64,000 nucleotides of DNA from Thermoplasmata archaeon (GTDB taxonomy: Archaea; Thermoplasmatota; Thermoplasmata; RBG-16-68-12; JAFNFQ01). The notes under the pieces were generated by a model that was given only the letters and a program-made list of their open reading frames with translations, was not told the origin of the DNA and did no database searches. Location of the stretch: assembly GCA_041489255.1 (NCBI GenBank), contig JBGPQV010000002.1:128001-192000 (forward strand). Reading direction: 5' to 3'. Made by a program: the position numbers and the translations under genes. The stretch's first letter is position 1; each line of letters opens with the position of its first letter. Below, piece after piece: positions 28,221 to 36,106 of this stretch.

Positions 28221-28814
28221 ATGAAGAGCATTGACGCCCTCGTGAAGAAGGCGATGGATTACAAAAAGAAAGGCCTGAAGGAGGACGAGATAGCAGACGA
28301 GCTGCACCTCTCGAAGGACACGATCATCTGGCTGCTGACCCGCGGCCTGAAGGGCGGCGAGCCGCCTAAGGACGTCAAGATCGGCTGGCGCTCCATCGGT
28401 GTCATGGGCAACAGGATAGCGGCGATGGCTTCCTCCATGACCGACATCATCCTCGAGGAGACGGAGAAGAGCGGCAACGAGCCGCAGTGCGTCGCCGGCA
28501 TTGCGATCAACGGCATACCTTATGCCACATGCATATCCGAGGAGCTGGGGGGCGAGCTGGCGATATACAGGCCCCCGAGCGAGAGAGGGAAGGCGGGCGG
28601 TCATTTCTCCAGCAACTACGCCGCGGTTCAAAATAAAAAAGTGATCTTCGTTGATGACGTCGTGAGCACCGGTGAAACGATGAAGGGCGCGATAGCGGAC
28701 GCGCGAGCTTCCGGCGGCACTCCGATCCTCGCGGTCGTCTTGGTGAACAAGACGGGACAGGACGAACTGGACGGCGTCCCCCTGCGGGCACTCATCCGCG
28801 CCAGGTCAATCTAG
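28221..28814 (+). CDS. Orotate phosphoribosyltransferase-like protein with N-terminal HTH (PyrE-like/GfcR family)
   Basis: IADELHLSKDTIIWLL HTH; PPKDVKIGWRSIG; PRPP motif VDDVVSTGET. Confidence 0.85.
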   Translation: MKSIDALVKKAMDYKKKGLKEDEIADELHLSKDTIIWLLTRGLKGGEPPKDVKIGWRSIGVMGNRIAAMASSMTDIILEETEKSGNEPQCVAGIAINGIPYATCISEELGGELAIYRPPSERGKAGGHFSSNYAAVQNKKVIFVDDVVSTGETMKGAIADARASGGTPILAVVLVNKTGQDELDGVPLRALIRARSI

Positions 28815-30424
28815 TGGTGCAGATGCACTGGTTCGACGAGCTCCTCGGGAATGCGGAGGAGTTCCTTCACGGGCGCGAGAGGGTCCTCTGCAACGCGGGC
28901 TTGAGCGTCTCCGGTCTGCAGCATGTAGGCCGTCTAAGAGGGGAAATCGCGCTCAACCACGCGATAGTCAGAGCATTGAGATTGAAAGGAAAGAAGGCCT
29001 CTCAGAACCTTGTACTATACACGCAGGACCAATGGAAAGGCAAGGAGGGACAGCTGGGCAGGTTCAAGGCCGGGGAAGGGGAGCAGTACATCGGTCGGAG
29101 GCTGATGGATGTCCCGGATCCGGAAGGCTGCCACAGGAACTGGGTGGAGCACTACTGGGTCGATTTCGGGGACCACCTGGACAGGTTCGCCCCCGGGATA
29201 AGCGTGATCAGCACGACGGAGGTCTACTCCCGCCAGGATATGAAGGACCTCGTCATCGAGCTCGTGAGCAAGAAGGAGGCCGTGCGGGAGGTGGTGAACA
29301 AGTACCGCAGCAGGAGACCCTACCCGTCGGACTGGATTCCATTTGAGGCTTATTGCGAGAAGTGCCAGCGCGTCGGCAGCGCGAAGACGCTGGAGCTCCT
29401 TCCCGATCACCGGGTGCGCTACGAGTGTGAGTGCGGCAACTCCGGGATCTCCCCCATCGAGAGGGGGAAGCTGAACTGGCGACTCGAATGGCCGGCCCTG
29501 TGGAAGGTCCTGAAGGTCGATGTCGAGCCTTTCGGGAAGGACCACGCCGCGCCTGGCGGGTCGAGGGACAGCTGCAAGGAAATCGCGCAGAAAATCATGG
29601 GGATGGAGGCGCCATTCCCGATCCCCTACGAGTGGGTCGGGCTGGGGCGGGGAGGGAAGGATCTCGGGGACATGGGCTCCTCCGACTTCATCGGTTTCAC
29701 TCCGAAACAATGGCTGGAAATCGGCGACCCGGAGGTCATCCGCTACATCTATTTCTTCAACCCGGTCTCGAGGCGGGTGGTCCTCGACTTGAGCAAGGTG
29801 GACTCATATCACGACCTCTACGATTCCGCCGAGAGGGCACATCATTCCGCGAAGAAGAATGAGGAAGAGGAGGTCGCGGCTCGGAGCTTCGAACTCGCGC
29901 TCGTCGAGAAGACGATGGAGGAGATGCCGTTCCAGCTCTCATACCGCCACGCGGCATACCTTTCGCAGATCTCACCGGCTGAGCACAAGGTGAGCTGGTG
30001 CATCCAGCGACTGAGGGACACCGGCATGCTCTCCCTGCCTCTCACGCCGTTCGAGGAGGGCAGGATAGAGAGAAGGCTGACGCACGCTATGAAATGGGTG
30101 GAGCTCTACTCCCCCGAGAACAAGGTCATGCTCCTTCAGGAAGTGACTCCGAAAGTAATCGAACAGCTCGACGAGAAAGACAGGGAAGCTCTCTCGATGT
30201 ATCTCGGAGCGGCGGTAAAGACTGAATGGCGGGAGGATGCAATCAAAGAGTCCATGGTTGCGCTCACAACGAGCGGGAAATTGCCGGTCGAGACTCCTCG
30301 CTTCTTCAGAGATCTGTATCTCGTGCTCCTCGGACAGGAAAGAGGCCCGCGCGCAGCGCCTTTCCTCGCGGTGCTGAAGAAGGAATGGGTCCTGGAGAGG
30401 CTGAAGGAGACGGCAAAGGCCTAG
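28814..30424 (+). CDS. lysS: Class I lysyl-tRNA synthetase
   Basis: HW..; SVSGLQHVGRLRGE (HIGH-like), KLNWRLEWP, EPFGKDH, DMGSS, GQERGPRAAPF. Confidence 0.93.
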   Translation: MVQMHWFDELLGNAEEFLHGRERVLCNAGLSVSGLQHVGRLRGEIALNHAIVRALRLKGKKASQNLVLYTQDQWKGKEGQLGRFKAGEGEQYIGRRLMDVPDPEGCHRNWVEHYWVDFGDHLDRFAPGISVISTTEVYSRQDMKDLVIELVSKKEAVREVVNKYRSRRPYPSDWIPFEAYCEKCQRVGSAKTLELLPDHRVRYECECGNSGISPIERGKLNWRLEWPALWKVLKVDVEPFGKDHAAPGGSRDSCKEIAQKIMGMEAPFPIPYEWVGLGRGGKDLGDMGSSDFIGFTPKQWLEIGDPEVIRYIYFFNPVSRRVVLDLSKVDSYHDLYDSAERAHHSAKKNEEEEVAARSFELALVEKTMEEMPFQLSYRHAAYLSQISPAEHKVSWCIQRLRDTGMLSLPLTPFEEGRIERRLTHAMKWVELYSPENKVMLLQEVTPKVIEQLDEKDREALSMYLGAAVKTEWREDAIKESMVALTTSGKLPVETPRFFRDLYLVLLGQERGPRAAPFLAVLKKEWVLERLKETAKA

Positions 30425-30614: not shown

Positions 30615-30866
30615 ATGTACTACTTGAGTGAGGAAATGGACACGACAATCCGCGAACTCGACGACGACCTCTACCGGCAGGCAAAGGCCAAGGCGGCCCT
30701 CATGGGTATCTCCATCGGACGCGCTATGAACGAGGCCATGCGGAAGTGGATCTCAGAAGGCAGCGAAGCCAAGAAGGGGAGCATCCTCGATCTGAAACCG
30801 GCGAGATTCGGGAAGGGAAGCGAGCATCTCAGCGAAGAAATCGACAAGGTCCTGTATGGGGAGTAA
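30615..30866 (+). CDS. Antitoxin (ribbon-helix-helix-like, VapB-type)
   Basis: TTIRELDDDLYRQAKAKAA; SEEIDKVLYGE tail; directly upstream of the PIN gene. Start may be 30636. Confidence 0.8.
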   Translation: MYYLSEEMDTTIRELDDDLYRQAKAKAALMGISIGRAMNEAMRKWISEGSEAKKGSILDLKPARFGKGSEHLSEEIDKVLYGE

Positions 30867-30868
30867 GG

Positions 30869-31273
30869 ATGCTGCTGCTTGACACCAGCGTGATAGTCGC
30901 CTTCAGGAATGCCGATGACGTGAACCACGAGAGGAGCATGCGGGTGTTCGAGGACCTGGCGAACGGCAAATATGCGAACGGCCTCGTAAGCGAATTTGTG
31001 TTTCTTGAGACGGTGACAGTGCTGAAGAGGAAGTGTGGAGCGACGATCGCGGTTGAGACCGGCGAGGCACTTCTCGACTCGAAGGAGATCAAAGTCCTCC
31101 CATCTGGAGACTTATCCGATGCTTCCTGGAAGGAATTCGTGAACCTTTCGAAGACGAAGCTGAGCTTCGTCGATGCCTCCAATCTCGTTGCCATGCGGAT
31201 GTACGGGACCCGGGAGATAGCGACGTTCGACCAAGAGTACCGCAAAATCAAGGGGATAGAGGTCGTCGGATAG
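30869..31273 (+). CDS. vapC: PIN-domain toxin (VapC family)
   Basis: LLDTSV, ETVT, LSFVDA and IATFD acidic PIN residues. Confidence 0.9.
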   Translation: MLLLDTSVIVAFRNADDVNHERSMRVFEDLANGKYANGLVSEFVFLETVTVLKRKCGATIAVETGEALLDSKEIKVLPSGDLSDASWKEFVNLSKTKLSFVDASNLVAMRMYGTREIATFDQEYRKIKGIEVVG

Positions 31274-31351: not shown

Positions 31352-31366
31352 CGAAAATGCTTATAC
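31352..31366 (+). promoter_or_regulatory. Archaeal BRE/TATA promoter for tRNA-Gln and glnS
   Basis: CGAAAATGCTTATAC, about 25 nt upstream of the tRNA 5' end. Confidence 0.6.
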
Positions 31367-31389
31367 GGAGACGCGGCTTGACGGAACGT

Positions 31390-31460
31390 AGCCCCGTGGT
31401 GTAATGGCAGCATAAGAGGCTCTGGACCTCTTGGCATCGGTTCGAATCCGGTCGGGGCTG
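31390..31460 (+). tRNA. tRNA-Gln(CUG), 71 nt, CCA not encoded
   Basis: AGCCCCG/CGGGGCT acceptor, AGAGG-CTCTGGA-CCTCT anticodon arm, ATCGG-TTCGAAT-CCGGT T arm, discriminator G. Confidence 0.93.
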
Positions 31461-31489
31461 CCTGTCCATCCGAGATTCGGTGAAGAAGA

Positions 31490-33175
<1,686 letters not shown>

Positions 33176-33279
33176 GAGGGGGTTTTCTCCGGCTCATCTG
33201 ATTTCCTCCGATGTCATGCATGACATGTCAGGGCAAGTGTGATAAACTCCCCGTGCATTGGTGGAAATGGAGGTTGAAG

Positions 33280-33888
33280 ATGGCCCCCCCTACAAATACA
33301 ATATTGCTGCTTGCCCTGATTGTTGTTGCCTGCCTCGTGATAATCCTTGTGGCATTGGCAATCTTTTGGCTGGGTCAGAAGGAACCTGCACCGAAGGGCA
33401 AGGTGCGGCAGAGAAGGGCCGTTGTGACAATCCTCGGAGCGGCCGTTTTCCTATCGTCGTTCTTCGCTGCGATCTACTCAGATCCTGGCACGCCGTGTTG
33501 CGGAATCAGCCTCAGAATGCGTGTGGTCGATTCGTCCGGTGGATTCACCATGGATGACTTTCTGGTGACTCTGGATCATTCCCCGGACAGGTACCTCAGC
33601 GTCGAAAGGAACAATGAATATGTGCTGATTGATGGGATTTCCAGCAGCGACATCCTTCCAATCAGGCTCGAATGCAGCCAATCACCAATCTTTTGGGGCA
33701 ACAGCAGTCTAACCCTGAACTCCTACGTGTCACACCATTTCTTCATCTTGACATACGCCAATTCGACAGGGGACTCCGATATGGTCACGTTGTATCTGAA
33801 TCATGATGACAATATTCATGTCTACCACTTCGGATTTGGAAACGAATGGGTGGACATCGAGGTTATGGTCTCAGAAAAGCAATATTGA
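33280..33888 (+). CDS. Hypothetical membrane protein (two TM helices)
   Basis: RBS GGAGG; two hydrophobic segments; more AT-rich than its neighbours. Confidence 0.6.
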   Translation: MAPPTNTILLLALIVVACLVIILVALAIFWLGQKEPAPKGKVRQRRAVVTILGAAVFLSSFFAAIYSDPGTPCCGISLRMRVVDSSGGFTMDDFLVTLDHSPDRYLSVERNNEYVLIDGISSSDILPIRLECSQSPIFWGNSSLTLNSYVSHHFFILTYANSTGDSDMVTLYLNHDDNIHVYHFGFGNEWVDIEVMVSEKQY

Positions 33889-35200: not shown

Positions 35201-36016
35201 TTGATGGAGAAAACGGGCAAGACCAAGTTCAAGATTTGCATCGTCGGGGAAAAGTCGGTGGGCAAGACGTCGCTTCTCGAGAGGTATATCTTCGGCACCT
35301 TTGGCGGTGACTCAGGGGCCTCTTCCGGCACGAAGATGTCTTCGGTGAGTTCAAGGAACATCGAGGCGGGCGGCAAGGTGGTCGACGTTGATGTGGCCTT
35401 CTTCGACCTCATGGGTGCGACGGCGGTGAGGGACTCCTTCAAGGAAGTGTTGTTCTGGGGCGCGCATGGTTTCCTGGCGGTGGCGGACATGACGAGGTCG
35501 GACACGATCCGCGCTCTCCCTGCCTGGGTGAAGGTCGTGAGATCCGTTGCGGGGGAGATCCCGTTCCAAGTGCTCCTCAATAAAGCCGACCTGGCACTTG
35601 GAGGCGAATTAAATCTTGAGGACATTGGCTGGTTAAATTCACGGTTCCCCAAGACGCCGTATCATCTAGTCAGCGCAAGAAGCAGCATCGGAGTCGAAGA
35701 CGGCATCGACGCGCTCGTAAAGGACGTCATCGAAAGCATCCTCGCAAAAGCCGCCGTGAAGAAGGAGACACCCGTTCGAGTCGGCGAGATCAGCAGGAAG
35801 ATTCTGTCCTTCGCAAAGAGGAGGAGCCCCATAGGCGTCCCCAAGAAAGACCTCCTGATGGTCATCAAGAACGTGGACCACGATTCCTTGATGGCGGAGA
35901 TTGAAGAACTCAAGGAGAACGGGCTGGTGACGATAGAGTTGACCGGCCCGGCGTCATTCTTGGTCAAGATCACCAAGGAAGGCGAGAAGCAGCTCGAGCT
36001 GACGGCGGCTCACTGA
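35201..36016 (+). CDS. Ras/Rab-like small GTPase with probable C-terminal winged-helix
   Basis: G1 GEKSVGKTS, G3 DLMG, G4 NKAD, G5 SAR; C-terminal LKENGLV..VKITKEG. Confidence 0.8.
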   Translation: MMEKTGKTKFKICIVGEKSVGKTSLLERYIFGTFGGDSGASSGTKMSSVSSRNIEAGGKVVDVDVAFFDLMGATAVRDSFKEVLFWGAHGFLAVADMTRSDTIRALPAWVKVVRSVAGEIPFQVLLNKADLALGGELNLEDIGWLNSRFPKTPYHLVSARSSIGVEDGIDALVKDVIESILAKAAVKKETPVRVGEISRKILSFAKRRSPIGVPKKDLLMVIKNVDHDSLMAEIEELKENGLVTIELTGPASFLVKITKEGEKQLELTAAH

Positions 36017-36021
36017 CAGAG

Positions 36022-36106
36022 TGCGGCGGCCAGGATTCGAACCTGGGGACTCCTTCGAGACGAGGACCTAAACCTCGCGCCGTTGGCCGAGCTTGGCTAC
36101 CGCCGC
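36022..36106 (-). tRNA. tRNA-Leu(UAG)
   Basis: GCGGCGG/CCGCCGC-A acceptor, CGAGG-TTTAGGT-CCTCG anticodon arm, long variable arm, TTCGAAT; TTTATA box upstream. Confidence 0.93.

Follow-up and report, generated by a model that had tools for sequence, protein, structure and literature searches.

A glnS-linked class of tRNA-Gln(CUG) genes in Thermoplasmatota

Two described systems for making Gln-tRNA lie closest to the locus considered here. In Escherichia coli, the identity elements of glutaminyl-tRNA synthetase (GlnRS) are given as the discriminator, the pairs 1-72, 3-70 and 10-25, and U35/G36 (PMC9976931). In the archaeal indirect route through a non-discriminating GluRS and GatDE, GatDE is described as recognising the first pair A1-U72 together with the D-loop, where positions 19 and 20 are among those read (PMC2330236), and the discriminator of archaeal-type tRNA-Gln is given as A73 (PMC9499178). 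In the statements that the following papers make on GlnRS in archaea, the wording ranges from "All known archaeal ... lineages lack" it (PMC9499178, 2022) and "all archaea lack" it (PMC3439900), through its presence in none of the archaeal genomes analysed (PMC5388404), to "almost all archaea" (PMC8762117); a 2024 preprint mentions in passing GlnRS beside cox genes in Heimdallarchaeia. PMC9499178 ties the absence, citing Tumbula et al. [quoted passage not shown] Two systems for one amino acid have also been described within single genomes: GlnRS with an amidotransferase in Deinococcus, Thermus and Bdellovibrio (PMC4206432), and two PylRS/tRNA-Pyl pairs, one with G73 and one with A73, in one archaeon (Zhang et al. 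2022, as reported in PMC9499178).

Whereas textbooks give archaea no such enzyme, a bacterial-type GlnRS was found in 77 of 401 Thermoplasmatota genomes (75 above the cut-off, one fragment and one below the cut-off). The dedicated tRNA-Gln that accompanies it keeps A1-U72; its D-loop is altered and so, often, is its discriminator. A description of this tRNA-glnS cassette was not found in a full-text literature search, which lay outside subscription papers. We consider it probable (about 0.7) that the tRNA-Gln(CUG) gene considered here is functional and belongs to a linked class that travels with an acquired glnS, in a genome from which the indirect route is gone.

The tRNA-Gln(CUG) gene and its surroundings

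The window, the whole stretch of DNA that was analysed, comprises 64,000 nucleotides (positions 128001-192000 of contig C2) of genome G000, a 2.74-Mb assembly of 41 contigs that is 96.5% complete. The features of the locus are as follows.

31352..31368, forward strand: putative BRE/TATA-like promoter element cgaaaatgcttatacgg, with a TATA-like core some 27 nt 5' of the first tRNA base
31390..31460, forward strand: tRNA-Gln(CUG), 71 nt (ARAGORN, Rfam RF00005 and reading of the sequence)
31461..31489, forward strand: spacer of 29 nt from the tRNA to the start of glnS; an SD-like GGUGA lies at 31479-31483
31490..33175, forward strand: glnS, bacterial-type glutaminyl-tRNA synthetase, 561 aa (Pfam, TIGR00440)
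33211..33888, forward strand: ORF of 225 aa without a Pfam match, at the site held in relatives by a second tRNA-Gln 3' of glnS

ARAGORN predicts tRNA-Gln(ctg) at 31390-31462, and the general Rfam tRNA model, the only covariance model with which the gene was scored, matches 31390-31460 over its full length (59.7 bits against a gathering score of 29, E 2.1e-10). The gene can be parsed into the acceptor stem AGCCCCG/CGGGGCU, the linker UG, the D-stem GUGU/GCAU with the 7-nt D-loop AAUGGCA (31403-31409), a single A, the anticodon stem AGAGG/CCUCU with the 7-nt loop CUCUGGA that holds the anticodon CUG (31422-31424), the 4-nt variable loop UGGC ending in C48 (31435), the T-stem AUCGG/CCGGU with the loop UUCGAAU, and the discriminator G73 (31460), which is the bacterial, E. 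coli-type base and not the archaeal A73. The first pair is A1 (31390)-U72 (31459), as in substrates of GatDE. Position 15 is an A (31404), and the D-loop is not the native 9-nt form, which is AGYGGYCAA in Thermoplasmatota and is contacted by GatE. CCA is not encoded; CC and then U follow G73. All the features that a first-pass annotation had listed, namely A1-U72, the AGCCCCG stem, G73, the AATGGCA D-loop with A15 and the A15/C48 combination, are thus in place, and ARAGORN and Rfam agree.

An identical gene, preceded by an identical promoter element, is found in G001, an independent assembly from the same genus, so that G73 and A15 are not assembly errors. A search for sequencing runs with this stretch listed none of RNA; four DNA runs gave one near-identical contig across it, possibly its source, and otherwise fragments at low depth. 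The D-loop AAUGGCA also occurs in tRNA-Gly(CCC) of the window genome and is therefore rare there without being unique to tRNA-Gln; among the intronless tRNAs that could be placed in register, tRNA-Gly(CCC) is the only other one with A15. Given that the window genome encodes ArcTGT (513 bits, C7:20955-22277, 2.4 kb from its tRNA-Gln(UUG) gene), A15 simply escapes archaeosine. When 35 glnS-linked CUG tRNAs were aligned, 99.0% of the cells were paired and compensatory changes appeared in 8 pairs, all in the anticodon and T stems; none of 500 shuffles of this alignment attained as much pairing, or as many pairs with both bases altered, as was observed. We take the window gene to be a functional tRNA-Gln(CUG), as its sequence predicts.

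Compared with E. coli tRNA-Gln, the window tRNA has G73, G2-C71, G10 (in a G10-U25 pair), U35 and G36 (after C34) and a weak 1-72 pair in common. E. coli tRNA-Gln carries U1-A72 and G3-C70; the window tRNA has instead A1-U72 and C3-G70, and differs further in G37/A38 of the anticodon loop. The host is archaeal, and the tRNA gene is fixed immediately 5' of glnS. With the tRNA of the archaeal indirect route, as described for M. thermautotrophicus (PMC2330236, PMC9499178), it shares the A1-U72 acceptor stem, the 4-nt variable loop and the body. That route is still used by relatives in the same order. The differences are a D-loop 2 nt shorter than the native one, G in place of A as discriminator, and a genome in which GatD, GatE and GatB were not found.

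A/T-rich, TATA-like boxes lie at comparable distances 5' of the linked tRNA in the loci of families f2, f3 and f29. In two relatives (G002 and G182), the glnS ATG comes about 5 nt past the tRNA end, which suggests a single transcript cut by tRNA processing; the linked tRNA and glnS are probably co-transcribed. The 60 nt on either side of the tRNA did not fold above shuffled sequences (z -0.73 upstream and +1.98 downstream, where the spacer lies).

The neighbourhood holds further genes. A class I lysyl-tRNA synthetase gene (Pfam tRNA-synt_1f, 28814-30424, forward strand) lies upstream, separated from the tRNA-glnS unit by a PIN-domain gene (30746-31273, forward strand), so that two synthetase genes stand no more than 3 kb apart. 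Downstream is an ORF for a small GTPase of the Ras/Roc family (35201-36016, forward strand; Pfam Roc 1e-15, Ras 1.9e-13), and tRNA-Leu(UAG) (36021-36106, reverse strand) lies 5 nt beyond its end on the opposite strand.

The synthetase and its linked tRNA across the phylum

The window synthetase matches PF00749 (tRNA-synt_1c, E 5.8e-105), PF03950 and PF20974, and scores 692.4 bits against NCBIfam TIGR00440 (cut-off 425.8), with the class I HIGH/KMSKS motifs present. It is a clear orthologue of the E. coli enzyme (PDB 1GTS/1QTQ family; E 2.3e-195 against the E. coli GlnRS chains) and conserves HIGH (E. coli residues 40-43) and VMSKR (267-271), as well as Leu136 and Asp235. A signature of co-evolution was sought on the enzyme side and not found, the acceptor-contact residues being conserved in the alignment to E. 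coli GlnRS. No archaeal-specific change was seen at the E. coli acceptor-contact residues that were checked; the differences were R130H and E131D only, and the EDH motif of the window enzyme is also found in a bacterial GlnRS.

The nearest bacterial GlnRS, from Planctomycetota, Ignavibacteriota and others, are 62-70% identical to the window enzyme, and three records labelled "Thermoplasmata" are 70-75% identical. In a tree of 128 sequences (IQ-TREE, LG+G4, short search), from which L114 (redundant with the G014 row) and the partial GlnRS of G005, G028, G031 and G034 were excluded, the 52 sequences from Thermoplasmatota group together as one clade (SH-aLRT 96), apart from the 76 nearest bacterial ones, that is, a single origin among the sampled rows. 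Since the root is a midpoint root and the bacterial rows are those nearest to the query, one horizontal acquisition of a bacterial-type glnS is the most economical reading, though an unproven one. The window GlnRS groups with f20, a family of another class (SH-aLRT 89), and not with f2, f3 or f7 of its own order; transfer of the cassette within Thermoplasmatota is therefore possible. Among 77 bacterial glnS loci that were fetched, just one has an adjacent tRNA-Gln, with U1-A72 and an encoded CCA, which argues that the linked archaeal tRNA is home-grown. Contamination or mis-binning was also considered and rejected: the window belongs to a 255-kb contig with archaeal tRNAs and the class I LysRS, and the cassette is present in the single-contig assemblies G027, G387 and G459.

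A tRNA-Gln(CUG) gene 5' of glnS recurs in families f29, f50, f48, f18 and f20 (35 cassette loci in other classes), where the linked tRNAs have D-loops of 7-9 nt and a common AGAGR/YCUCU anticodon stem. The layout of tRNA-Gln(CUG), glnS and a second tRNA is found in f2, f3 and f7 and in most of these 35 loci. The first-pass annotation had proposed a native archaeal tRNA remodelled to fit the neighbouring GlnRS, and the linkage part of this proposal holds, the class being physically tied to glnS across the phylum.

The native origin is borne out in the window's order, of which 61 genomes were sampled. A covariance model built from the two tRNA-Gln genes of the window genome located the tRNA-Gln genes, and 90 distinct ones were parsed in 59 genomes, in a set that excludes the CUG isoacceptors of genus g8 of f4 and any UUG genes of f7. 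All 90 have the acceptor stem AGCCCCG/CGGGGCU of the window tRNA. A73 is present in 86, and the four genes with G73 are two each from the window genome and G001; A15 is confined to the two CUG genes of this genus. GlnRS exceeded the cut-off in 17 genomes of the order, and G031 and G034 hold fragments. A tRNA-Gln with a 7-nt D-loop was found in 18 of these 19 genomes and in 0 of 40 without GlnRS, always just 5' of glnS; in the exception, G005, glnS begins at the contig edge. The linked CUG tRNA has A73 in 16 of the 18 cases (f2, f3 and f7). What follows glnS on its 3' side differs among the families: a UUG copy of the short tRNA in f2, which has no further tRNA-Gln; a native CUG gene with a D-arm intron in f3, which keeps a native UUG gene elsewhere; and an intronless native CUG gene in f7. 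The f3 intron, of about 29 nt, lies at a non-canonical position in the D-arm after AGCGGUCAA (L036:2331-2432, L041:2289-2390, L043:384-486).

Sequence patterns for tRNA-Gln with G73 matched 64 of the 401 genomes and the A73 version matched 220, with no match to the reversed-pattern controls. The patterns catch only genes with AGCC..G and TTCRAATC (any tRNA-Gln was caught in 72 of 77 genomes with GlnRS and 187 of 324 without) and miss others, so that the counts of G73 and A73 are lower bounds.

GlnRS found (77 genomes): G73 found in 47, not found in 30
GlnRS not found (324 genomes): G73 found in 17, not found in 307

G73 is thus enriched about twelvefold in genomes with GlnRS (61% versus 5%), related genomes being non-independent samples; among the genomes in which any tRNA-Gln was caught, the figures are 47 of 72 versus 17 of 187. 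Four of the 17 genomes with G73 and no GlnRS belong to f29, where relatives have glnS, and 13 to f10-f12 of the window's class; no GlnRS was found in the sampled families f8-f17 of that class. In f10-f12, G73 sits on a native-type tRNA-Gln with a 9-nt D-loop, and GatE was present in 6 of 6 genomes tested, a test that covers 6 of these 13 and leaves G324, G396, G447 and G450 outside as well. Because G73 and GatE are combined there, G73 alone cannot be a general block to GluRS/GatDE. In f32, by contrast, 14 genomes have GlnRS and G73 was found in 0 of 24. Across 42 rows the linked tRNA has G in 21 and A in 21, with at least five changes on the GlnRS tree, a pattern also compatible with weak constraint. 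G73, though enriched in genomes with GlnRS, is neither required nor exclusive.

The claim that G73 reflects the presence of GlnRS is favoured by the phylum-wide counts, and A73 on most linked tRNAs of the order speaks against it. The comparison with relatives lacking glnS, in which common G73 and A15 had been named as evidence against remodelling, gave a divided result: G73 does occur in the 13 genomes of the same class, and A15 is not common there. As a mark of remodelling A15 finds no support. Among the tRNA-Gln genes examined it is limited to the window genus and one f50 genome (G432), and nothing ties it to GlnRS; going by this distribution, A15 most likely plays no part in identity.

Two kinds of gene beside glnS are recorded here as separate observations. 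In L219 (2223-2295, G066) and L209 (421-493, G221), tRNA-Gln-like genes combine A73 and the native acceptor and D arms with the odd anticodon loops UCCUGCA and CUUAGAG; these may be native copies in decay, or tRNAs whose decoding has changed. In f32, a tRNA-Glu(CUC) lies directly 3' of glnS in place of the second tRNA-Gln (L210, L211, L213, L229, L230, L237).

Routes to Gln-tRNA in the window genome and its relatives

In the window genome, 96.5% complete as noted, GatE and GatB gave 0 matches and GatD just a 39-bit fragment, so that the genome shows no tRNA-dependent amidotransferase and GlnRS is left as the sole visible route to Gln-tRNA; GatE was also not found in G001. AsnRS is present (410 bits, cut-off 342.6), and an archaeal-type GluRS is encoded on contig C12. 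With AsnRS and GlnRS present and no GatB, GatD or GatE match, both amide aminoacyl-tRNAs appear, from gene content, to be made directly. The second tRNA-Gln gene, with the anticodon UUG (C7:18519-18591), has the same acceptor stem, G73, G15 and the 9-nt D-loop AGUGGCCUA, so that a short D-loop is not needed. No tRNA-Gln with A73 was found in this genome, and both of its tRNA-Glu genes have A73. Replacement of the indirect pathway by the direct one is complete in the window genome. The same genome carries two identical tRNA-Arg(UCU) genes 1.3 kb apart (C1:151194-151271 and 152505-152582). ARAGORN with introns allowed returned many long false "tRNAs" in coding DNA, which were ignored.

Elsewhere in the order, the two routes are distributed by family.

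f1 (the window genome and G001): GlnRS found; GatE not found
f2 (6 genomes): GlnRS found; GatE not found (6 of 6)
f3 (8 genomes): GlnRS found; GatE found
f5 (1 genome): GlnRS found; GatE found
f7: GlnRS in 2 of 14; GatE in 13 of 14, including both genomes with GlnRS
f4 and f6: GlnRS not found; GatE in 23 of 26 (f4) and 4 of 4 (f6)

GlnRS and GatE are thus found together in f3, f5 and part of f7, and outside the order in f29 and f50. Of the 76 genomes with GlnRS counted outside the window's order, GatE was present in 47 and not found in 29. Among those 29, A73 matches were obtained in 6 only, and these are the glnS-linked tRNA itself.

Family f29 shows both tRNA sets side by side. In its genomes with GlnRS, for example G182, G73 genes for CUG and UUG flank glnS, and native-type A73 genes for CUG and UUG lie elsewhere; the sets are never mixed. 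In the nine cassette loci of f29 that were fetched, all parsed genes with G73 have a trimmed D-loop of 7-8 nt. The native-type A73 tRNA-Gln was found in 12 of 16 f29 genomes with GatE versus 0 of 19 without, and the G73 tRNA-Gln in 14 of 16 versus 17 of 19. This gene co-occurrence, among related and incomplete genomes, suggests that the native set goes with GatDE and the linked set with GlnRS.

As in the archaeon with two PylRS pairs, f29 holds two tRNA sets for one amino acid, distinguished by G73 versus A73. In contrast to that case, where orthogonality was measured, here it would follow from gene co-occurrence; the routes use different enzymes (GlnRS versus GluRS with GatDE) for a canonical amino acid, and one route is left in the window genome. 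The coexistence of a direct synthetase with an amidotransferase in f3, f29 and f50 resembles the situation in Deinococcus, Thermus and Bdellovibrio. To our knowledge, no duplicated tRNA-Gln set specific to each pathway has been reported from those bacteria.

Explanations for the linked tRNA class

Our preferred explanation, that the class travels with glnS, starts from an archaeal tRNA-Gln. With its A1-U72 acceptor stem kept, it would have given rise to a glnS-linked class found throughout Thermoplasmatota. The class differs from the native one in a D-loop of 7-8 nt, or sometimes 9 nt ending in CUA, against 9 nt ending in CAA, and also in the AGAGR/YCUCU anticodon stem, in a putative promoter of its own and, in about half of the lineages, in G73. 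Given that GatDE is gone and both tRNA-Gln of the window genome have G73, GlnRS has to charge the two of them, and they must escape glutamylation by the host GluRS. The trimmed D-loop, G73 or both may have made the linked tRNAs good substrates of GlnRS and poor ones of GluRS/GatDE, and this shift could have opened the way to the loss of GatDE and of the native tRNAs. Apart from the distribution, this idea draws on the identity set given for E. coli (PMC9976931) and on the use of A1-U72 and the D-loop attributed to GatDE (PMC2330236). Several findings go against a simple rule: f2, without GatE, lives with linked tRNAs that have A73; the UUG tRNA of the window genome has a 9-nt D-loop; f10-f12 have both G73 and GatE; and GatDE is reported to reject extra, not missing, D-loop bases (PMC2330236). 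Either change may help without being necessary, or GluRS may have changed as well.

We entertain more tentatively, and at somewhat less than even odds, a broader reading, in which many Thermoplasmatota run two insulated routes to Gln-tRNA: GlnRS with a co-transcribed set that has a trimmed D-loop and often G73, and GluRS/GatDE with the native A73 set. Separation of the two would depend on the discriminator and the D-loop, and the window genome would be an end point at which the archaeal route has been replaced entirely. If so, a translation pathway would here have been replaced step by step in nature, by means of a private tRNA set, and the case would directly test the old proposal that GlnRS was kept out of archaea by the peculiarities of their tRNA-Gln. 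The sampled lineages seem to show every stage, from the native route only, through both routes with two tRNA sets, to GlnRS only, and a 25-year-old hypothesis thereby becomes testable with a handful of enzymes and transcripts. Natural GlnRS/tRNA pairs may also be of interest for code engineering.

A rival account, to which we would give perhaps one chance in a few, is that the window tRNA is an ordinary GlnRS-charged decoder of CAG, with G73 and A15 as neutral noise and the linkage as inherited gene order. The A73 of 16 of the 18 linked tRNAs of the order, the repeated flips between A and G on the GlnRS tree, the 13 genomes with G73 and no GlnRS, and the presence of A15 in two lineages and in tRNA-Gly(CCC) of the window genome are all consistent with this account. 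It does not readily explain why G73 is about twelvefold enriched with GlnRS, why the G73 and A73 sets of f29 coexist unmixed with 7-8 nt D-loops on the G73 set, or why both isoacceptors of the window genus have G73 despite their different bodies.

The first-pass annotation had also raised the possibility of a semi-orthogonal pair of tRNA and GlnRS; that such a pair runs beside a native GluRS/GatDE system in this cell we now regard as very improbable. Double systems do appear in f3, f5, part of f7, f29 and f50, and at the gene level a second route with its own tRNA set is present in f29 genomes such as G182. In the window genome, the absence of GatE and GatB matches and the mere 39-bit GatD fragment, together with the presence of AsnRS and G73 on both tRNA-Gln with no A73 gene found, argue that no such pair exists; nor was GatE found in G001. 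Finally, arrival of the tRNA from bacteria along with glnS, which its place beside a bacterial-type gene and its bacterial discriminator G73 might suggest, is scarcely credible given an acceptor stem identical to that of native archaeal tRNA-Gln, with A1-U72 and C3-G70, and given the single bacterial locus in 77 with an adjacent tRNA-Gln, which has U1-A72 and an encoded CCA.

A further observation concerns f29, in which a second ORF of about 577 aa scores about 340 bits against the glnS model, below the cut-off, whereas ordinary archaeal GluRS score about 250; from its score it may be a distinct GluRS/GlnRS-like paralogue. Its copies are located as follows.

G426:C101:3726-4823
G462:C26:8420-9520
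G327:C59:10828-11925
G282:C26:5249-6376
G273:C29:12065-13195
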